Program-made: the position numbers and the translations under genes
Shown: one piece after another, positions 1,627 through 31,513 of the stretch
Position numbering within the stretch: position 1 is the stretch's first letter
How the letters are laid out: each line of letters starts with the position of its first letter
The notes under the pieces: model-generated
What the model was told of the DNA's origin: nothing
The model's database searches: none
The model's input: only the letters and a program-made list of their open reading frames with translations
Assembly: GCF_004376175.1 (NCBI RefSeq)
Contig: NZ_SNUY01000029.1
Location: 14,056-46,055, forward strand
DNA: 32,000 bases
Direction: 5' to 3'
From: Halalkalibacterium halodurans
GTDB taxonomy: Bacteria > Bacillota > Bacilli > Bacillales > Bacillaceae_D

Positions 1627-2076
1627 CTATAACATGTTTAAAAATCGCTCGGTCACTACAGGTCCATCTTGCTTGTCTTTACATATGATCAGGATCGTAT
1701 CATCACCACAAATGGTTCCCATAATTTCAGTCCAATCAAGGTTATCAATGAGCGCACCAATGGCATGGGCATTCCCTGGCAATGTTTTCATCACAATTAA
1801 ATTATCCGTTCGGTCGATGCTAACAAAAGAGTCCACAAGACCACGTTTGAGCTTTTGTAACGGATTAAAACGTTGGTCAGCTGGTAAACTATATTTATAT
1901 CGCCCATCCATCATTGGTACTTTGACAAGATGCAGCTCTTTTATGTCACGAGAAACTGTTGCTTGGGTGACATTGTAACCAGCCGCCTTTAACTGTTCTA
2001 CAAGCTCATCTTGCGTTTCAACATCGTTATTTGCAATGATCTCTCTAATTTTAATATGTCGCTGTCCTTTATTCAT
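1627..2076 (-). CDS. ahrC: Arginine repressor ArgR/AhrC
   Basis: The track ORF is 1627..2085. The sequence from [14 protein letters not shown]...[18 protein letters not shown]...[14 protein letters not shown] is near-collinear with B. subtilis AhrC. I prefer the ATG at 2076 (MNKGQ) to the upstream start. Confidence 0.93.
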
Positions 2077-2221
2077 GATTACCACCTGTTTTCTAGAGTC
2101 AATACCTTTATTATCTACATAATTTGTTAGGAAAACAACCGATGATGACTGACTGTAGGCGCACTCGGAAAGTCGCCTCGTGTTTGACGCTTTGCGCTAG
2201 ACATCTCTGTTTCTATATTTA

Positions 2222-3101: not shown

Positions 3102-4991
3102 TTACGCCCTTTTTTGCTTTCTCGGAAGCAATTTGCTTAATTGGTTCGCCACTTGGCTTGAGGTGAGGCCAATTTCTTCAAGCAATTCGCTTACGCTTCC
3201 GTGTTCAATAAATCGATCAGGTATTCCCATCCGCTGGGTGACGACATTGTGATACCCATGGTCATGGAAAAATTCCAGTACCGCACTACCAAAACTTCCT
3301 TGCACCGCTGTCTCCTCAAGCGTTAATACTGGTCGCCCGCTTTTCGCAATCTCGTGAAGCATCGCCTCATCAAGAGGTTTAACCGACCTAGCATTGATTA
3401 ACCGGATGGAATAACCTTGTTGTGAAAGCTCTTTACTCGCTTGCTCTGCAACTGGGATCATCGTTCCGAAGGTAAGAATACAGGCATCCGTTCCTTCTTG
3501 TAGCACTTCCCACGATCCAATTGGGATTTCCTTTAACACCTCGTCCATTTTGATTCCATACCCGTTCCCTCTCGGATAACGGACAGCTATTGGTCCACCC
3601 TCATATTGAATGGCTGTATAAACCATGTGCTGCAATTCATTTTCGTCCTTTGGCATAAGGATCTTCATGTTTGGTAAATGGCGTAAATAGGCGATATCGA
3701 AAACCCCTTGATGTGTTTCGCCATCTGCCCCAACAAGTCCTGCTCGGTCAATTGCAAAAAACACGTTTAAGTTTTGCCTGCAAATGTCGTGCACGACTTG
3801 GTCATATCCCCTTTGCAAAAAGGTTGAATACACAGCGAATACGGGCTTTAACCCTTGTGTTGCAAGTCCCCCGGCCATTGTGGTCGCATGCTGCTCTGCA
3901 ATCCCTACATCAAACATACGATCTGGAAATTCCTTTGCGAATTGGTCAAGCTTCGTCCCACCAGGCATGGCTGCAGTGAGGGCCACAATTCGAGGGTCGT
4001 TGCGAGCAATTTTCTTTAATGTTTCTGCAAACACACCGCTATAACTTGGCGGAGCCGGTTTTTTTACAAGCTCACCTGATTCAATTTTGTAATGACCGAC
4101 CCCATGCCATGTACCCTTCTCATCATTTTCTGCGGGGGCGTAGCCTTTTCCTTTTTTCGTCAGAACGTGAATGAGGACAGGACCTTTTGTTTTCTTCGCG
4201 TATTTCAAGTTTTCCATCAAATCGTCAAGGTCATGGCCGTCGACTGGTCCTAAATACGTAAAGCCCATTTCTTCAAAGAAAATGCCAGATACGAGCAAGT
4301 ACTTTAAGCTGTCTTTCACACGCTCAGCCGCTTGAGCCAACTTACCACCGAAAGCTGGAATCTTTTTGATCAGCATTTCCAGATCTTCTTTTGCCTTTTG
4401 ATATTTACCTGCTGTCCGCAAGCGCCCAAGAACATTGTGAAGAGCACCGACATTTGGAGCGATCGACATTTCATTATCGTTTAATACGACAATTAAATCC
4501 TTCTGCTCATGTCCGATATGGTTTAACGCTTCGAGGGCCATGCCACCTGTCAACGCTCCATCACCAATGATGGCGATAACGTTTTCATCTGTCCCCTTTA
4601 AATCACGGGCTGTAGCCATTCCCATCGCTGCAGATAGAGAAGTGGAACTGTGTCCCGTTTCCCAAACATCATGCTCACTCTCGTCGCGTTTCGGAAATCC
4701 ACAAAGCCCTTTATATTGTCTAAGTTGATCGAATTGTCCTGCTCGTCCAGTCAAAATTTTATGTACGTAAGCTTGATGACCTACGTCCCAAATCAACTTG
4801 TCTTTCGGACTGTCAAACAGTGAATGTAATGCCAACGTCAATTCGACAACCCCAAGGTTTGGCCCGAGATGGCCGCCCGTAATGGATAGCTTTTCAATTA
4901 AAAATTGACGAATCTCTTCCGCTAATTGCTCCAATTCTTGCTTTGTCATTGATTTGATCAAGGAAGGATCGTGCAGCTTCTCTAAGTCCAT
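3102..4991 (-). CDS. dxs: 1-deoxy-D-xylulose-5-phosphate synthase
   Basis: The 629-aa ORF begins [56 protein letters not shown], which are TPP-binding motifs. It appears full length and collinear with Dxs. Confidence 0.97.
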
Positions 4992-5000
4992 GAAGTGACC

Positions 5001-5615
5001 TCACTTTCGAGAATTTTTCTCTTTCTTCTTTTTTCCATTTGGTAGAAAGTTTATGTTCATTTTTTCTTCAAGAAAATAAAACACTTTTCCTACTTGGTAA
5101 ATAATTGCGGTGGAATGCTCAATCGCCAATGTCTTCCCAATCGCTTTACCGCCCACCGTTAGCGCGGCTACCACACTCGTAAATAAAACCGACAACGCAA
5201 ATTGCTGGCCTGAGTTTTCACCATACCCGAGCTGTAAAGCCAACTGAATGACAACATAGGTGGCTGCTGTTCCACTCACAATACCTGATATATCTCCAAT
5301 TACATCGTTGCAAAAATTCGCAAACCGATCCGCATTGCGAGTAATGGCGACAGCTTGTTTTGCCCCTTTTAACCGCTCTGAAGCCATCGCATGAAATGGC
5401 TTTTCATCTGCTGCAGTTGCTGCCACCCCAATTGTATCAAAAAGAATCCCAACAAGCACAATAAGCAAAACGATTCCCATGCCAACTGCCCAGGAAACAC
5501 CGCTTAACATGAATGTGGAGACAATTGAAAAAATCGCCGCTAACACAAGCGTGATAACGGCAATAGCTAAAGTCCAATTTATTGATTTTCCTAGAGATTT
5601 CATAGCGCCTCGCAT
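5001..5615 (-). CDS. oapA: OLE-associated membrane protein OapA (four predicted TM helices, Lys-rich C-terminal tail)
   Basis: The ORF is 204 aa, or 200 aa if the start is MKSLGK at 5603. Four hydrophobic spans are visible: WTLAIAVITLVLAAIFSIV, WAVGMGIVLLIVLVGILF, ISGIVSGTAATYVVIQLAL and FALSVLFTSVVAALTVGG. It lies immediately 3' of the large ncRNA and 9 nt 5' of dxs. No counterpart occupies this position in B. subtilis. Confidence 0.75.
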   Translation of the reverse strand: MRGAMKSLGKSINWTLAIAVITLVLAAIFSIVSTFMLSGVSWAVGMGIVLLIVLVGILFDTIGVAATAADEKPFHAMASERLKGAKQAVAITRNADRFANFCNDVIGDISGIVSGTAATYVVIQLALQLGYGENSGQQFALSVLFTSVVAALTVGGKAIGKTLAIEHSTAIIYQVGKVFYFLEEKMNINFLPNGKKKKEKNSRK

Positions 5616-5659
5616 ACACCTTTTTAAATAGAATACACTAAATTCGTTCCGACTGCGTA

Positions 5660-6275
5660 TGTATGAGAGTGGTCATTTAAAGAGTAAACTCTGTGGCTTA
5701 GGTCCAGTAGGATTTCCCAATTCAACACCAGTGCGTCGCCGCGCTGGCGGTTTCCCTTTATGTTGAACTTGGCGCTGTCACCAAACGCCAGACTGGATTA
5801 CCACTTAGTCCACACTGTAATCCTCTTTAAATGTCCCCATGGAACAGTCTAGGAGTTTTCCTCGGCAATCCCTTGCCATTCTCTTATCCTCTTTTGCAGA
5901 GCAGATTTCATATGGTACTAGAGAGGCAATGGCTGTTGGCCGACAGCGGATTGCTTCAAAACCCATAATCCCCTCTACTCCACTCAAGGCAGGCTACGCT
6001 GCTGACAAGCTCCCTAGCTTGCCTTCGCAGGTTCATACCCTTTGCTCTTGCCCTATGTCCATACATAAGCAGCAGAGAAAAAGGCCTCCACAGTAGGAGG
6101 GTCATCGCCCACATGCCTTTGTGGATCGCCCTACTACCTTTTCTCCCAGCAATGACCCAAGGCTGGGCGCCTCAAGCCATCACAAGGAGCTTCATCGATG
6201 TGCCCTTTGGCGGATTTTTAGCCCCGCCTTCAAGAATGGAGGATTGACTAGAATACTGCACCACTCTTATTCTAA
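5660..6275 (-). ncRNA. ole: OLE (ornate, large, extremophilic) RNA; ends approximate
   Basis: The 723-bp gap between ispA and oapA has no credible ORF. It carries many GC-rich local helices on the minus strand: GGCGG/CCGCC 6209-6228, CCACA/TGTGG 6109-6124 nested in GTAGGAGGG/CCCTACTAC 6093-6137, GCTGT/ACAGC 5932-5947, GGCAA/TTGCC 5864-5877 and GGATTAC/GTAATCC 5795-5823. An own promoter sits at 6281-6309. The ispA-RNA-4TM protein-dxs synteny matches the published OLE locus. The 5' end is set from that promoter and the 3' end from the expected ~600-nt size. Confidence 0.8.
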
Positions 6276-6280
6276 AAGAC

Positions 6281-6309
6281 ATTATACCATGAAATCAATC
6301 GAAGCTCAA
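6281..6309 (-). promoter_or_regulatory. Sigma-A type promoter with extended -10, directly upstream of OLE RNA
   Basis: The minus strand reads TTGAGC (6309-6304), a 17-nt spacer ending in TGG, then TATAAT (6286-6281). This gives TGnTATAAT. It starts about 30 nt after the ispA stop codon. Confidence 0.5.
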
Positions 6310-6338
6310 TTACATTAATTCCCTTCTTTGATCAGCAA

Positions 6339-7223
6339 CTAATGGTTACGATTCACGACATAATCCGTTAATTCCTCTAATAAGCGATGGTTCATTTGAA
6401 CACTATATAAATATTCCTTTGCCAGCAAAGTATGCAAGTGAAGCTTCTCTTTTGCCCCTTCGAGGGTTAATAGGCTTGGATAGGTGCTTTTTTGATTTCC
6501 ATCATCGCTTCCAACTGGTTTACCAATGGCAGCTTGATCCCCTTCAACATCTAAAATATCATCTTTTATTTGAAAGAGTAAGCCTAATTCTCTTGAAAAT
6601 CTACGTATGTTCTCAATATCTTGTTCAGATGCATCCGCAAGCCTTGCCCCTGCAACAATGGCGAACGAGAGAAGCGCCCCTGTTTTATGATGGTGGATAT
6701 ATTCAAGTCCCTCGACCGTTAGTTTTTGATTTTCTCCTTCGATATCAGCTACTTGTCCGCCTACCATTCCTTCTGGTCCAGCAGCCCTTGCAAGCTCTTC
6801 TATCAAGCAGAGTGTTTTGGCCGGGTCAACACCTTTCATTTTGGCCACAATCTCAAAGCTGTACGTTAATAATGCATCCCCTGCAAGAATGGCATGAGCT
6901 TCTCCGAACACTTTATGGTTCGTCGGTTTTCCCCGGCGAATATCATCATCATCCATCGATGGGAGGTCATCATGAATGAGCGAGTACGTATGAATCATCT
7001 CAATCGCACAGGCAAGGTCAATCCCCTGTGAAATATCCTTTTGAAAACTTTTCATCGTTGCCAATAGCAGCGCTGGTCGAATTCGTTTTCCTCCTGCCTT
7101 CAAGGAGTAAAGCATAGAATTTTTCAGCATGTCAGGAGAATTTAGTCGTTCAATATGTGCAGGCATCCGCTCTTCGATGATGTCTTTAATTTCATCTAAA
7201 AATTGTAACAGTTGTACACTCAC
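6339..7223 (-). CDS. ispA: Farnesyl diphosphate synthase (polyprenyl synthetase)
   Basis: The 294-aa ORF has both Asp-rich motifs, [17 protein letters not shown] and FQIKDDILD. Its GTG start overlaps the xseB stop (GTGA). Confidence 0.95.
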
Positions 7224-10337: not shown

Positions 10338-10736
10338 TTATTTAGTTTCTTCTTCTCCATCGACTGCTTCAAAATGCACGCCGACAATATGAACGTTTAT
10401 GGATTGTAGCTCAATGGCAGTCATAGTTTGCAAAGCTTGTTTGATGTTTTGTTGAATTTTCTTCGCCACTTCTGGAACGGATACTCCGTAAAGAATAATG
10501 ACGGAAACATCAACGATAATCCCCTCGTCATTCAAATCAACCTTTACACCTTTGCCATGATTTTTATAACCTAATTTCTCTGCCACTCCTGCTGCAAAAT
10601 TGCCCCTCATGGTGGCGACCCCTTCAACTTCTGAGGCTGCAATCCCAGCGATTACTTCAATGACCTCTGGTGAAATTTCCACCCTGCCTAAATCTGTTTT
10701 TTGCTCTTCTAGGTCTAACAGATGGTTCTCGTTCAT
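10338..10736 (-). CDS. yqhY: Asp23/Gls24-family envelope stress protein (YqhY-like)
   Basis: The 132-aa ORF reads GRVEISPEVIEVIAGIAASEVEGVATMRGNFAAGVAEKLG, typical of Asp23/DUF322. It sits between accC and nusB, as in B. subtilis. Confidence 0.9.
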   Translation of the reverse strand: MNENHLLDLEEQKTDLGRVEISPEVIEVIAGIAASEVEGVATMRGNFAAGVAEKLGYKNHGKGVKVDLNDEGIIVDVSVIILYGVSVPEVAKKIQQNIKQALQTMTAIELQSINVHIVGVHFEAVDGEEETK

Positions 10737-13546: not shown

Positions 13547-15112
13547 GAATCAATTTCATAAAGCCTATCTCTTGAATCAGACAAGAATCCAATTTTCGTT
13601 TTATTGATTTTAAAAATGGATTTAAGCTGCTTGAATCATCTCCTTTTCGGAGAGTACTTTAGCTATGCGATCACACGCGAGTTTCGAACCGTTATAGACT
13701 AATTGTGTCAAATCAAAATGTACTTTTGCTCGTTTTCCTGTACGGTAACGAACATTATTTAATTGGAAGAATTCTTTAAGATAAGCGATGACGCGTTCGA
13801 CTGCACTTCTTTGCTTGTAAAGATTTTTCCAAGCTTTTGAACCACGGGCTGGCGCTGTATAGCGACGTAGATCCGTCGTGATTTTCACTTTATAGACTTT
13901 CTGACAGAGCGTATCTTCTGCTAGCGGACAGTCTTTACACTCTTTTGGACGTGTATACTTTAGTGTCTCGTAAGTTGGGTCATAACTATCATACCGATAT
14001 GAATGTTCGCGAACACAGGTAGGGGCAAAATACTTATCAAAGCCTACTGGTTCTGATTCATTCTTCTTGTTATAAGCAATAATGGACTGGGCACGGATCC
14101 GATAGATTTGTTCATAAATAGCGGGATAATCGTAACCTGCATCCAGTGTACTGTAAGAGATCGGAAGGATAGAAAGACGCTCATGAATGCCTTTTAATAA
14201 AGGGATTGCCGCTTTTCCATCATTTAGATTACCAGATGAGAATAGAGATTGAAGAATGTACTGACTTTTGGTTCCAACGGCTAAATGTCCTTTATATCCA
14301 AACCAATAAGCATTCTTTCCTTCACTATTTTTCTTAATGCCCCATTTAGGATCAGTTGGAACGGACGATCGTAATTCATTTAAAGGCGTATCAAGCTGAG
14401 ATTCAATGGGTTTCTCAAAAACTGACAGAGCTGCTTCGCGTTCAGCCTGTTCTTGAACCCATTTCTCTTGTTCTTCTTTTGATTTACGCCCACGTTTTTT
14501 GGGTTCTGGTTTCGCTTTTTCTACTTTCGCTGGCGCTTGATCACGAGCTTCAATATGAGTCGCATCGATGGCAATGGTGTCGTCCATGACAAATCCTTCA
14601 ATGATGGCTTGAAGAATCTGCGTTTCTTGAACACGTTCTAAAACATCTGATTCTTCTAATTTTGTGAGCATTCTTGAATAAGATGCTTCAGATGGAATCG
14701 CATCAGAAAGAAGGAATCCACAATCTAAACGGAACATGTAGTCATTCTTTAAACGTTTAATAAGATCTTTAATCGTAGGAATTCGTTCAAGAATTCTAGC
14801 TGTAAGTGAGTAAATCATCGCTGCGTAGTTTAGCTGAACAGGAGCACCATAAAGGGTTTTTTTCGATACAACAGCTAGAATCGGATCAACCTCAATTGTC
14901 GAAAATACCGCTTCAAAACGGTGGGTAGGTTCTAACTCATATAAATCTTGCAGGGCAAATAGGCTTCCTTGTCGTATAATAGTCATAAGGGAGTCTTCCT
15001 CCAGTCGTTAGTTTTGTGTGGTAACTTACTAATTCGACTTTTGGGGAGGTACTCCTTTTTTCGTGTCTTAAAAGCCTTACGAGACTAAGGGTTCAAATTA
15101 TGAAATTTACTC
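13547..15112 (-). mobile_element. Insertion sequence, IS4/IS5-superfamily (IS1182-like); boundaries tentative
   Basis: It contains the intact transposase ORF 13622..14986. The candidate terminal inverted repeats are GAATCAATTTCATAA (13547-13561) and the reverse complement of 15098-15112, GAGTAAATTTCATAA, matching 13/15. They are flanked by a direct CTTT at 13543-13546 and 15113-15116. The outermost IR bases are the mismatched ones, so the ends are uncertain. Confidence 0.55.
13622..14986 (-). CDS. DDE transposase (IS4/IS5 superfamily, IS1182-like)
   Basis: The 454-aa ORF has an apparent DDE triad in typical contexts: IAIDATHIEA, FGYKGHLAV..., LDAGYDYP and YKQRSAVERVIAYLK. A Lys/Glu-rich linker is also present. 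The ORF looks intact. Confidence 0.85.
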   Translation of the reverse strand: MTIIRQGSLFALQDLYELEPTHRFEAVFSTIEVDPILAVVSKKTLYGAPVQLNYAAMIYSLTARILERIPTIKDLIKRLKNDYMFRLDCGFLLSDAIPSEASYSRMLTKLEESDVLERVQETQILQAIIEGFVMDDTIAIDATHIEARDQAPAKVEKAKPEPKKRGRKSKEEQEKWVQEQAEREAALSVFEKPIESQLDTPLNELRSSVPTDPKWGIKKNSEGKNAYWFGYKGHLAVGTKSQYILQSLFSSGNLNDGKAAIPLLKGIHERLSILPISYSTLDAGYDYPAIYEQIYRIRAQSIIAYNKKNESEPVGFDKYFAPTCVREHSYRYDSYDPTYETLKYTRPKECKDCPLAEDTLCQKVYKVKITTDLRRYTAPARGSKAWKNLYKQRSAVERVIAYLKEFFQLNNVRYRTGKRAKVHFDLTQLVYNGSKLACDRIAKVLSEKEMIQAA

Positions 15113-26771: not shown

Positions 26772-27746
26772 GTGATTACGATGGACCGTCAGACAATTGC
26801 CCAAAAGTTTCAAGAACGTATTCTCGGTCTCTTATTTTACCCTTATCACTCACGAATACTTCAAACATTTACCCAAAAATGGCGGGACCGAATCGACCGT
26901 GACAGAAGCAATGCACTCGAACCGAGCACCATCCCTTTTGTCCAACGAGAAGAAAAAATTCTCCCTACCTCGTATGGTGGAACTCGCGTGCTCATCTACC
27001 GCCATGATAAAACATTAAATAGCTAAATACCAGTATATGTAAACATGCACGGTGGCGGTTTCGTCATGGGAAATGCGGAGATGGATGACGTTTGGTGTAG
27101 AGTCATAGCTGATCGTGCCAATTGTGTAGTGGTCAATATTGATTACAGGCTCGCACCACAGCATAAATTTCCAACTGCTGTTTATGAATGTTATGAGGTG
27201 GTCCAATGGCTTGTCGACCATCCTGAGCAATTCTCCATCACCCCTCAGAAAGTAGCCATTGGCGGTCATAGTGCTGGAGGTAACTTAGCTACGGCTGTCT
27301 GTCTGTTAAATTTAGAACGAGGAAATGAACTTCCAATCATCTACCAAATAATCGACTATGCACCGCTTGACTTACATACAGACCCAGCTCTGAAGCCATC
27401 ATTCAAGGACGCAATCCCAGTAAAGATGGCAAGGCTATTTAATGCTTCTTATGTAGAGACTGAGGAAGATGCCCGCAACCCATTAGCGTCTCCTCTTTTT
27501 GCTGAGTCGCTTCAAGGATTGCCAGATGCGCTAGTGATTACTGCTGAGCATGATTCGCTTGCGGCCGAGGGGGAGCAATATGCGGAAAGATTAAAACAAG
27601 CTGGTGTGAAGGTGACATACAAGGACTATAAAGGAATGCCCCATGGGTTTACTCATGTCGGTGACCTAGCGGTAGCAGAACACGCTTGGCATCTCATGTG
27701 CGACAAGTTAAAGGAAGCGTTTTCAAAGTCCTGCGAGCCTATGTAA
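26772..27746 (+). pseudogene. HSL-family (family IV) alpha/beta-hydrolase esterase/lipase interrupted by an in-frame TAA
   Basis: Track ORFs 26772..27026 and 27045..27746 are in the same frame, separated only by TAA at 27024-27026. The read-through is ...GGTRVLIYRHDKTLNS*IPVYVNMHGGGFVMGN. The downstream part has HGGG, the nucleophile GGHSAGGNLA, and the later EHDSL and MPHGF motifs. Confidence 0.75.
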
Positions 27747-28342: not shown

Positions 28343-29369
28343 TTACGTAAAGTATTCGATGGTCGCTTGGGGGAACATTTGATGGATATAGCCTTCTATC
28401 GCCTCTTTTAATGCCTCAGCTTCCTCGTCCTTATATACATATTTGCCAATGCCATAGCGACCCCATTTGTATTTTCGTTCTTCTTCTTCCATTTGTAACT
28501 TCGTTTTCGGATATCGCTTCATAATGACGCGCTTTGCCGGCTTCGTGAAGCGATGTTGGATCAATTCAAATGTTAAATCGTTACGGCAGCTTCTTGGCAG
28601 CGTTGCCTCTAATCGTTCAAACAGCTCTTGGTACCCCCTCTGCCAACCGTAAAATAATCGGAGCAACGATAAAACCAAGAGGATAGCCAGCCTCTGCCAA
28701 CTTTTTCGCCGCTTCCAGCCGTTCTGAAAGACTGGATGTCCCTAGCTCGAAATGACGCACAACATAATCTGCATTCACGCTAAAACGGAACCTCGTTTTC
28801 CCATTATGGTTGGCATCAAGTAAATGATTGACATGATGATACTTCGTGACAAAGCGCAAACGACCATATTCTGTTTGTCCTATGTGCTCAATCGTCTTTT
28901 TTAACGAGTGGGTTAGGTGGTCAATGCCGACGATATCTGAAGTACAAGCCGCTTCAAACCGAGTAATCTCAGGCTCCCGCTTGTGGATGTATTGATCCGC
29001 TGCTGCAAAGATCTCCTCTAAATTCACGTATGTGCGGATATACGGCTTACTACCTAACGTTGTCTGCAAATAACAGTAATGGCAATGCCCCATACACCCT
29101 GTAGCCAGAGGGATCGCATACTCAGCAGACGGCTTCGACGTATCGAACGTCAAGGTTTTTCTTACCCCGATCACAAGGGTTGATTTTGCATTCCGGTATT
29201 GTTGTAGTTCATTTTTTCCGGGGATGTTTCGCACTTGGTTGTGGGAAGTCGTTTCCCTAAGCTCGACATCCATGTGTTTAAATTTTTCCACGAGGGTTCG
29301 TCCGAGCTCATACTCAAGTGCCCTTGGCTCATAATAGACGAGCTGTGGTAGAAATGGCTCCATCTTCAT
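28343..29369 (-). pseudogene. splB: Spore photoproduct lyase SplB (radical SAM), split by a frameshift near 28645-28660
   Basis: ORF 28617..29405 carries FLPQLVYYEPRALEY...ATGCMGHCHYCYLQ (CxxxCxxC)...GYPLGFIVAPII and then stops. ORF 28343..28678, in another frame, continues YGWQRGYQELFERLEATLP...LTFELIQHRFTKPAKRV...IEYFT. Together they are collinear with the 342-aa B. subtilis SplB. The junction lies at a T4 run (plus-strand AAAA 28651-28654). The likely start is MKMEP at 29369. Confidence 0.85.
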
Positions 29370-29482
29370 TCGTGCACATCCTTTTTTACTTAGTGTGCAC
29401 GTCACACCCCTTTTTCACATATCCACATAATGTTAGAACCGTTAGCCAGCAAAAAAGAGTGTAGCTTTGAAATAAAATTTGA

Positions 29483-30088: not shown

Positions 30089-31513
30089 ATGCTAGCAATG
30101 TCTGATATTAATTGTATCAAACATTTAAGAAATAACAAAGGTTTATCTATTTCAGAAATACAAAGAACAATGGGAATTAATTGGCGAACAGCTAAGAAGT
30201 ATGCGGATGAAGATCAACTCCCTAAACAGAAATCATTTAAAAAGAAAGGGATGATGTATGAGGAAAAGTGGGGAGAAATTGTTTCAGATTGGCTTTTTGA
30301 GGATTTAAAGTTAAGGAAAAAATTAAGAAGAACAAAGAAACAAATATTTGAAGAACTAAAGGAAATGGGTTTCCAAGGTTCTTATCGTACTGTTTGTTAC
30401 TTTATCTCTGAATGGATGAATACTCACCAAGAAGAAAAGGATAAAGGGTATGAAAGATTAGAACATCCTCCGGGTGAAGCTCAAGTAGACTTTGGAGTAA
30501 TGGAAGCTGTACAAGATGGAGAAATTGTGGATATTCATGCTTTAGTTATGACGTTTCCTCATAGTAATGCTGGATTTGCAGTACCGTTACCAGCTGAAAA
30601 TCAAGAATGCTTCTTACATGGCCTCAATATTCTTTTTAAACAGGTTGGGGGAGTACCTAAAAGGATAAGAATCGATAATTTGACCCCCGCTGTGAAGAAA
30701 AAAAGGACAAAAAATGAAGAAGCACAATTAACTGATGAATTTGTTCAATTTCAGAATTATTATGGCTTTGATGTGCAGGTATGCAATCCAAGAAGTGGCC
30801 ATGAAAAAGGAAATGTTGAGAATAAAGTTGGATATATACGCTATAACTTTTTTACTTCAGCTCCAATAATGGACAGCTATGAGGGTTTAACGGATCAATT
30901 ATTTCATAAATTAGAGGCGGACAGAAATAGAATTCATTATGCCAAAAACGTACGTATTGAGGACTTATGGCAGGAAGAGCGGGATTATCTTCTAGCCTTA
31001 CCAGAAAAGCCCTATCCTGTATTTAAAGAGCATCTTGTTAAAGTAAACAAATATAATGAAGTGAAAGTGGACCAGACGTTGGTTCATGTCCCTAAGGGTG
31101 GCAACTATAGTCAATTACAAATGATATTAACATGGGATCAATTAAAGATTGTTTCACCTAATGGGGAGATATTATTGGATGACTATCGGCCATATATGAA
31201 AAAGCGAAAAGCATTACCATGGCTTTCAATAATTAAAACATGGATTCATAAACCAAGGGTTGTAGAATATTCGCGCTATCATAAGTATTTACCGGGAAGA
31301 ATTAAAGAATTTTTGTTGGTAGATAATTTAATTATTCGACGAAAACGATTAGAAGCTCTAGCTAGTTTATTAGTTTCTCATGACATGAAGAAGATTAATG
31401 AAGAGTTCTATGAATTAATTGCACAGGATAAGCTACCTAGTGATAATAATCCTTATGAAGTGGACTGGAGTAAATACGATTCATTAGCTCCTAGAGAGGA
31501 GGCTGTCAATTGA
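30089..31513 (+). CDS. istA: IS21-family transposase IstA
   Basis: The 474-aa ORF has GGAGG 9 nt upstream and an N-terminal HTH (GLSISEIQRTMGINWRTAKKY). DDE-region contexts are GEAQVDFG, RIDNLTPAV and GHEKGNVENKVGYIR. Confidence 0.93.
   Translation: MLAMSDINCIKHLRNNKGLSISEIQRTMGINWRTAKKYADEDQLPKQKSFKKKGMMYEEKWGEIVSDWLFEDLKLRKKLRRTKKQIFEELKEMGFQGSYRTVCYFISEWMNTHQEEKDKGYERLEHPPGEAQVDFGVMEAVQDGEIVDIHALVMTFPHSNAGFAVPLPAENQECFLHGLNILFKQVGGVPKRIRIDNLTPAVKKKRTKNEEAQLTDEFVQFQNYYGFDVQVCNPRSGHEKGNVENKVGYIRYNFFTSAPIMDSYEGLTDQLFHKLEADRNRIHYAKNVRIEDLWQEERDYLLALPEKPYPVFKEHLVKVNKYNEVKVDQTLVHVPKGGNYSQLQMILTWDQLKIVSPNGEILLDDYRPYMKKRKALPWLSIIKTWIHKPRVVEYSRYHKYLPGRIKEFLLVDNLIIRRKRLEALASLLVSHDMKKINEEFYELIAQDKLPSDNNPYEVDWSKYDSLAPREEAVN

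Follow-up and report, generated by a model that had tools for sequence, protein, structure and literature searches.

What occupies the long interval that follows ispA in this Halalkalibacterium halodurans DNA, when in Bacillus subtilis ispA abuts dxs? The question concerns a 32-kb stretch of the genome (here called the window), for which an initial annotation made from the letters alone had proposed that the gene for OLE RNA, a large structured non-coding RNA, and the gene for its membrane partner OapA form an ole–oapA pair between ispA and dxs. We find that the window carries the ole–oapA locus of H. halodurans, from C-125 or a near-identical strain: the Rfam OLE model matches the interval over its full length, and the protein encoded next is OapA itself, identical to BH2780. 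H. halodurans is an alkaliphile and fits the description of OLE hosts as extremophilic or anaerobic Bacillota, the host being identified from both OapA identity and DNA identity. Nothing that we found argues against the ole–oapA identity.

A full-length OLE RNA gene between ispA and oapA

The upstream neighbour of ole is ispA (farnesyl diphosphate synthase; 6339–7223, minus strand), which matches NCBIfam NF045485 FPPsyn at 423 bits as well as Pfam polyprenyl_synt and ends in a TAG stop codon at 6339–6341. From here to the next open reading frame (ORF) the gap measures 723 bp if that frame starts at 5615, or 735 bp if it starts at 5603. The initial annotation had seen no credible ORF in this gap, and those present, on both strands, are indeed merely 52–85 amino acids long. 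A scan of the whole window with Rfam 15 at gathering thresholds returned a sole match, OLE (RF01071, gathering score 50), at 5653–6280 on the minus strand. As had been predicted, this match is full-length (538.6 bits, E = 1.9e-155, model positions 1–616 of 616); it spans 628 nt, in agreement with the ~600 nt described for OLE RNA, and the oapA start codon lies 50 nt past its end. No tRNA genes were detected in the window.

Next, the published B. halodurans numbering of OLE RNA could be placed on the window, with nucleotide n at position 6282 − n (nucleotide 1 = 6281). At this offset 15 of 15 published nucleotide identities agree; any shift of up to 3 nt in either direction leaves no more than 6. 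The OapA protein is identical residue for residue to BH2780 (BAB06499.1, Q9K970_HALH5; exact-sequence look-up), renamed OapA in the literature and described there as 'previously also called BH2780 or OAP' (PMC7936274), so the predicted OapA homology of the downstream protein also held. The DNA around the locus is 99.4–99.8% identical to ten H. halodurans contigs. Given this protein identity and the identity of the flanking DNA, the window therefore holds the locus of the experimentally studied species. Base-by-base comparison with five H. halodurans contigs revealed 12–32 differences from the window per 6.6 kb, with none in the 628-nt ole gene or in oapA, the latter zero reflecting in part how the contigs were chosen, namely by their exact OapA sequence. 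In those contigs the differences closest to ole are at 5631, in the spacer, and at 6299, 6321, 6329 and 6331, in the promoter spacer and upstream of it. Because no feature sets the window copy apart from the published locus, which has been under study in H. halodurans since 2006, we class the element as already known: the locus is the published one, in the model organism of the element, and it holds no new biology.

Several public H. halodurans assemblies carry hypothetical ORFs of 44 and 53 amino acids that gene callers have put inside ole, on the minus and plus strands, respectively, of those contigs; their window equivalents are at about 6113–6247 and about 5805–5966. Both annotations are almost certainly spurious.

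Promoter and expression

A proximal sigma-A-type promoter of ole is located at 6281–6309 on the minus strand and consists of TTGAGC (6309–6304), a 17-nt spacer and TGg-TATAAT (6289–6281). It scores 10/12 with a TG extension and is the best sigma-70-like site in 4800–6600, in accord with the proposal of the initial annotation that the gap has its own promoter at these positions. The hexamers are identical in five other strains, and the nearby single-nucleotide polymorphisms are solely those at 6299, 6321, 6329 and 6331. The predicted transcription start falls at about 6274–6272, just before the closing helix P1. In published experiments, the promoter immediately upstream of ole raised expression more than 100-fold and 5′ ends mapped by rapid amplification of cDNA ends lay near the P1 start; the RNA gave a single northern band, had a half-life of ~3 h and was induced by alcohols (PMC3413148). 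It has been described as abundant, stable and membrane-localised in H. halodurans (PMC3413148, PMC12265935). No intrinsic terminator was found between ole and oapA. From the promoter site seen here and its published activity, ole is transcribed from its own strong sigma-A-type promoter, with additional read-through from the xseA–xseB–ispA cluster. The resulting RNA, of ~600 nt and enclosed by P1, is stable and structured.

A weaker promoter-like site, TTGATT-18 nt-TAGAAT (9/12; 6269–6298, minus strand), overlaps the main one. A start directed by it would fall inside P1, and the site is probably a chance match.

Comparative support for the OLE fold

A one-genome-per-species scan with an OapA alignment gave at least 80 Bacillaceae loci, from which 20 of different genera were chosen. 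In 20 of these 20 a full-length OLE match (481–534 bits) ends just upstream of the OapA homologue. The structure tests below use a 21-sequence alignment of the window and these 20 Bacillaceae loci. When the structure of the model was transferred onto the window sequence, 147 of the 158 Rfam consensus pairs were canonical. Across the 21 sequences 90.3% of pair cells are paired, versus 40–45% (about 42%) once the 3′ partners are slid by 1–3 columns. Compensatory changes, with both sides altered, occur in 106 of the 158 consensus pairs, and none of 500 shuffles attained the observed values. Invariant positions number 234 of 628 across the 21 Bacillaceae genera, a sample narrower than the whole OLE family, for which extended near-invariant blocks, making up about 25% of positions, are the family criterion.

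RNAalifold, run without the Rfam structure, added P1, P2 and P3/P3.1, which are unpaired in the Rfam consensus. Throughout, published P-numbers were put on the Rfam helices by inference from the text of the papers, as far as that text describes them, and all helices are on the minus strand. P1 joins AGAGUGGU (6267–6260) with ACCACUCU (5673–5666), shows compensatory changes in the RNAalifold fold (one pair is G–C in 15 and A–U in 6 of the 21 sequences) and brackets the structured core of ~600 nt. In P3/P3.1, a long-range helix obtained with both RNAalifold and RNAduplex, the 5′ strand (6232–6246; CAAUCCU followed by CCAUUCUU) pairs with the 3′ strand at 5883–5866, which reads GAGAAUGG, a CAA bulge and GGGAUUG. 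In the window this helix has about 15 bp with a 3-nt bulge, and per-species RNAduplex predictions gave 11–14 pairs in 21 of 21 species despite sequence differences. The name P3 for the helix 6246–6232/5883–5866 is our inferred assignment, drawn from the portions of the published text that describe it. Lyon and Breaker have proposed P3/P3.1 as a membrane-crossing helix (PMC12265935).

The initial annotation had listed six pairs of complementary segments in the minus strand of the gap. All six are in the sequence and four of them belong to the conserved structure: GGCGGG/TCCGCC (6228–6209), CCACA/TGTGG (6124–6109), the helix that encloses the latter (6138–6092) and CGCTGT/ACAGC inside 5958–5922 each match the Rfam consensus. 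The other two lie outside the conserved fold. The GGCAA/TTGCC hairpin (5877–5864) was rejected as conserved structure: in relatives it is paired in 56% of cells and shows no covariation, and its positions overlap the 3′ strands of P3/P3.1, a covariation-supported helix with which it competes. GGATTAC/GTAATCC (5823–5795) was likewise rejected as a conserved helix. It is pairable in most species, and in 74 Bacillaceae sequences its variable position shows no covariation, being A–U in 46, A·C in 15, G·U in 10 and G–C in 3, where 3.2 G–C would be expected by chance. Since covariation is absent at 5795–5823, the conservation there is of sequence and not of pairing. The two segments sit in conserved internal loops beside P12.2, and their pairing would break three P12.2 pairs seen in the OapB co-crystal. 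A role for this pairing as an OapB-controlled switch was dropped, because the 74 sequences gave no covariation.

Dimer contacts and protein sites in the window

The P4 hairpin (6209–6228), an Rfam helix, closes with GGCGGG/UCCGCC on a conserved A-rich loop, GCUAAAAA (6222–6215). It is 100% paired in the 21 species, with compensatory changes in 4 of its 6 pairs, and its A-rich loop is a dimerisation contact in cryo-electron microscopy structures (PMC12265935). P5/P5.1 and the k-turn segments that flank it extend over 6135–6199. The helix itself (6189–6143, loop GCCCA at 6168–6164) has 20 bp and is 97% paired across the 21 species. Beside it, P6/P6.1 (6092–6138), which comprises the nested helices of the initial annotation, bears the loop AAGGCA (6119–6114), complementary to the P5.1 loop GCCCA; the P5.1 and P6.1 loops form an inter-molecular kissing loop (PMC12265935). 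The variable stems P7 (6084–6038) and P8 (6030–5999), both within 5999–6084, carry compensatory changes in 16 of 17 and 9 of 12 pairs, respectively, and have 5 non-canonical pairs and 1 non-canonical pair in the window species. The long arm P9 (5887–5990; Rfam helices 8–13) ends in the loop CGGCCA (5942–5937) with a GGCC palindrome; covariation of this palindrome has been described, and it acts as a symmetric kissing loop of the RNA dimer (PMC12286853). Judged by sequence, all three published types of dimer-contact loop (P4 A-rich, P5.1/P6.1 and P9 GGCC) are present in the window.

The published protein sites could be located in the same way. The k-turn flanking P5, at J4a/5, is the binding site of OapC (YbxF); it contains U84 and C85 and has segments at nucleotides 83–96 and 136–147 (PMC9723947). 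These correspond to 6198, 6197, 6199–6186 and 6146–6135 in the window, with matching identities. The four-way junction that binds OapB occupies 5703–5797 (Rfam helices 18–21), is 91–100% paired and has many compensatory changes. It contains P12.2 (5797–5792 with 5708–5703), P13 (5790–5770), with the bulged U498 at 5784 and a GUGA tetraloop at 5781–5778, and P14/P14.1 (5769–5719), with a GCGA tetraloop at 5739–5736. The published contacts in the OapB complex, P12.2 included, involve bulged U498, the GUGA tetraloop G501–A504, G489–C575, C491–U573, U576 and G577 (PMC7936274). The predicted OapB and OapC sites match the published identities at the GUGA loop, at U498, at G489–C575 (5793/5707) and at U84/C85.

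OapA and its similarity to CNNM proteins

The gene oapA (BH2780; 5001–5603, minus strand) encodes a weakly CNNM-like protein of 200 amino acids with four transmembrane spans and a Lys-rich C-terminus. The initial annotation had left its start at either 5615 or 5603. The first of these does not stand and the second does: ATG 5603 is the true start because 26 of 26 aligned homologues begin with MK there, and because the 204-residue form (start 5615) is not on record and the 200-residue form is, on at least 24 contigs and under the name BH2780. A homology search returned 4605 relatives at E <= 1e-5, the best match being 99% identical and from H. halodurans. The four hydrophobic spans and Lys-rich tail noted earlier are evident from hydropathy (residues ~10–32, 36–60, 101–124 and 134–155) and from the C-terminal sequence GKKKKEKNSRK; 7 of the last 15 residues are lysine or arginine, and K153 and K157 are invariant. 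The TGA stop codon (5001–5003) is followed by a 9-nt spacer and then by the dxs ATG at 4991, also as annotated; dxs (1-deoxy-D-xylulose-5-phosphate synthase; 3102–4991, minus strand) matches TIGR00204 at 942.8 bits.

Among 27 OapA sequences, D56, D92, D100 and D104 are invariant, and D100 and D104 are probably the two changed in the dominant-negative PM1 allele of OapA. The allele is described as mutated at 'two strictly conserved aspartate residues'. The membrane spans also hold invariant CNNM-like polar residues (D56, N99, D100, D104, S110, T112, T142 and T149). OapA has been found to bind OLE RNA (2:1) and to be required for its membrane localisation (PMC12265935, PMC7936274).

A relationship of OapA with CNNM, CorB and MpfA proteins, together with an anticorrelation between OLE and MpfA, was reported by Fernando and Breaker. 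Here, the Pfam CNNM family (PF01595) matched OapA with 17.2 bits (E 0.004), below its gathering score of 28.4, and reached E <= 0.01 in 16 of 27 OapA homologues, with a best value of 1.2e-5. The top four Foldseek matches of an OapA model were all to MtCorB (7m1t, 7m1u) at a probability of 0.99–1.00, the rest scoring at most 0.21. This fold match is only suggestive, as the underlying AlphaFold2 model came from a shallow alignment (27 sequences) and has low confidence (predicted local distance difference test, pLDDT, 57). A sequence-profile search of the PDB with the 27 homologues gave only chance matches to coronavirus spike proteins (E >= 0.22), an NCBIfam search gave no family for OapA, and no CBS pair, CorC/HlyC or other Pfam domain was detected in the protein, which ends at residue 200. 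By the CNNM family's own criteria, OapA is not a member, although it may function in a CNNM-like way all the same.

Gene neighbourhood and mobile elements

Read along the minus strand, the window carries efp, the spoIIIAA–AH operon, an IS1182-family element, a 117-residue ORF, accB, accC, yqhY, nusB, folD, xseA, xseB, ispA, ole, oapA, dxs, tlyA and argR, an order that agrees with published ole gene associations. argR/ahrC (1627–2085, minus strand) lies three genes downstream of ole, and yqhY (Asp23 family; 10338–10736, minus strand) six genes upstream. In a 2025 review, ArgR is an unpublished candidate OLE partner and yqhY a high-ranking associated gene. The genes for OapB, OapC and bS21 are absent among the annotated ORFs of the window, those of fewer than 90 amino acids not having been screened for these proteins.

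The IS1182-family insertion sequence (13547–15105, minus strand; transposase ORF 13622–14986) lies within the cluster of genes on the strand of ole, some 7 kb upstream of it, between spoIIIAH and the 117-residue ORF upstream of accB. It has 15-nt imperfect terminal inverted repeats (13547–13561 and 15098–15112) and an apparent target duplication of 11 bp, and it is missing at the same site in eight other H. halodurans contigs. The strain of GCA_001274915.2 probably shares the insertion, since its contig stops within the element, 15 nt in. Another mobile element is represented at 30089–31513 (plus strand) by the gene for an IS21-family transposase (242 bits).

Two further genes are interrupted. 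The splB gene (spore photoproduct lyase; 28343–29405, minus strand) is split into two overlapping ORFs, of which 28617–29405 covers model positions 1–235 and 28343–28678 positions 234–338. This implies a frameshift near 28617–28678, so that splB is a pseudogene here or its sequence contains an error. At 27024–27026, an in-frame TAG breaks an esterase/lipase gene of the hormone-sensitive-lipase family (26772–27746, plus strand); the two parts of this gene, an N-terminal one of 84 amino acids (26772–27026) and an HGGG-containing remainder (27045–27746) that matches the model from position 77, share one reading frame.

Assembly, mechanism and alternative explanations

The assembly of the complex has been published for H. 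halodurans and clostridial homologues, and the window shows matching sequence motifs. Two OLE RNAs dimerise through three contacts, the P4 A-rich loop, the P5.1/P6.1 kissing loops and the P9 GGCC loop. OapA, whose gene begins 50 nt past ole, binds OLE RNA and keeps it at the membrane, OapB binds the P13 GUGA tetraloop together with P12.2, and OapC and bS21 bind the k-turns beside P5/P6. Binding of OapB, OapC and bS21 to defined OLE sites and dimerisation of the RNA are both published (PMC9723947, PMC7936274, PMC12265935, PMC12286853). Knockouts of ole are sensitive to cold, ethanol, Mg2+ above 2 mM and poor carbon sources.

How such a complex might act is a question on which we hold a preference only tentatively. 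In the mechanism that we favour, OapA would be a stripped-down divalent-cation transporter of the CNNM/CorB type that keeps only the transmembrane domain, and OLE RNA with its partners would replace the missing cytosolic CBS-pair and CorC domains, sense the state of the cell and gate or tune Mg2+ export. OLE-gated Mg2+ export would account for the responses of the knockouts to Mg2+, cold, ethanol and carbon source. The PF01595 and MtCorB matches of OapA point in this direction, as do the published anticorrelation of OLE with MpfA and the Mg2+ sensitivity. Several points weigh against it. The literature contains no published demonstration of transport activity for OapA, the CNNM match stays under the Pfam gathering score (17.2 versus 28.4 bits), the PDB sequence-profile search with OapA homologues gave nothing, and confidence in the modelled structure is low (pLDDT 57); the knockout phenotypes and candidate partners (bS21, ArgR and others) are far broader than Mg2+ homeostasis, and models of OLE as a ribozyme or as a 'bTOR' signalling hub are still listed in the literature. 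Taken as a whole, with identity, expression and assembly included and the mechanism graded separately as above, we consider our explanation of the locus very probable.

In the main rival reading, OapA is a membrane anchor only and OLE RNA a multi-partner signalling scaffold ('bTOR') that sequesters or releases proteins such as bS21, OapB, OapC and possibly ArgR without regulating ion transport. The RNA has several distinct protein sites, the phenotypes and pull-down partners in published work vary widely, and ole clusters in the window with argR, yqhY, nusB, folD, xseAB, accBC and dxs, as in published gene associations. Such a scaffold, however, leaves unexplained both the invariant CNNM-like polar residues in the membrane spans of OapA and the anticorrelation of OLE with MpfA, and we regard it as possible yet rather doubtful. 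Going one step beyond the favoured mechanism, P3/P3.1 might cross the bilayer beside OapA, so that OLE, as an integral-membrane RNA, would take the place of the CBS and CorC domains in gating a CNNM-type Mg2+ transporter. The hypothesis comes from the literature and not from the window analysis, and we consider it unlikely. Still less probable, in our estimate, is a catalytic role, with OLE RNA acting as a ribozyme such as the proposed cyclic di-AMP synthase and OapA merely positioning it at the membrane. The ribozyme idea is stated in the literature, and the size, the 234 of 628 positions invariant across 21 genera and the ornate fold do resemble those of known large ribozymes, but reports of catalysis are lacking from the discovery in 2006 onward, the northern blot shows a single band with no self-processing (PMC3413148), and many of the conserved nucleotides are now explained by dimer contacts and protein sites.

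The gap could also be read as a long structured 5′ leader of an oapA–dxs mRNA, or as hiding a gene for a small protein, given the missing terminator between the RNA and oapA, the published co-transcription of the cluster and the 44- and 53-residue ORFs called inside ole in public assemblies. The published northern, half-life and binding data contradict this reading: the RNA accumulates as a discrete and very stable species (PMC3413148) and binds proteins in trans (PMC9723947, PMC7936274). Moreover, variation between species tracks base-pairing and not codons, length differences sit in stems, and the small ORFs are spread over both strands and are reported by only some gene callers. We consider a leader or hidden gene essentially excluded.

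Together, these results validate the raw-sequence reasoning of the initial annotation, which correctly recognised a known element, and supply a coordinate map of the published landmarks of that element: promoter, P1–P14.1, k-turn, tetraloops and dimer loops. The element has an importance of its own, OLE RNA being among the largest and best-conserved bacterial non-coding RNAs without a known biochemical function.

Comparison with known systems

The closest counterpart is the OLE/OapA system of H. halodurans C-125. The window agrees with it in the full-length covariance match, in every one of the 15 published nucleotide identities, in an OapA that is 100% identical, in a promoter at the site described for the proximal one, and in the gene order xseA–xseB–ispA–ole–oapA–dxs–tlyA–argR. 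In the flanks, 0.2–0.6% of positions separate the window from other H. halodurans contigs, and eight of these contigs are without the IS1182-family insertion.

The CNNM/CorB/CorC/MpfA transporters resemble OapA through a weak sequence similarity of the transmembrane (DUF21) domain, and the top structural matches of the OapA model are to the archaeal CNNM protein MtCorB. As for OLE–OapA, their published knockouts are Mg2+-sensitive. Unlike OapA, these transporters carry a CBS pair and CorC/HlyC, whereas OapA is always paired with a 600-nt RNA. Last, GOLLD and ROOL are, like OLE, large, highly structured and homo-oligomerising non-coding RNAs without a known biochemical function. OLE shares no sequence or structural homology with them and differs from both in forming a dimer rather than a nanocage, in being membrane-associated through a dedicated protein and in being confined to Bacillota.

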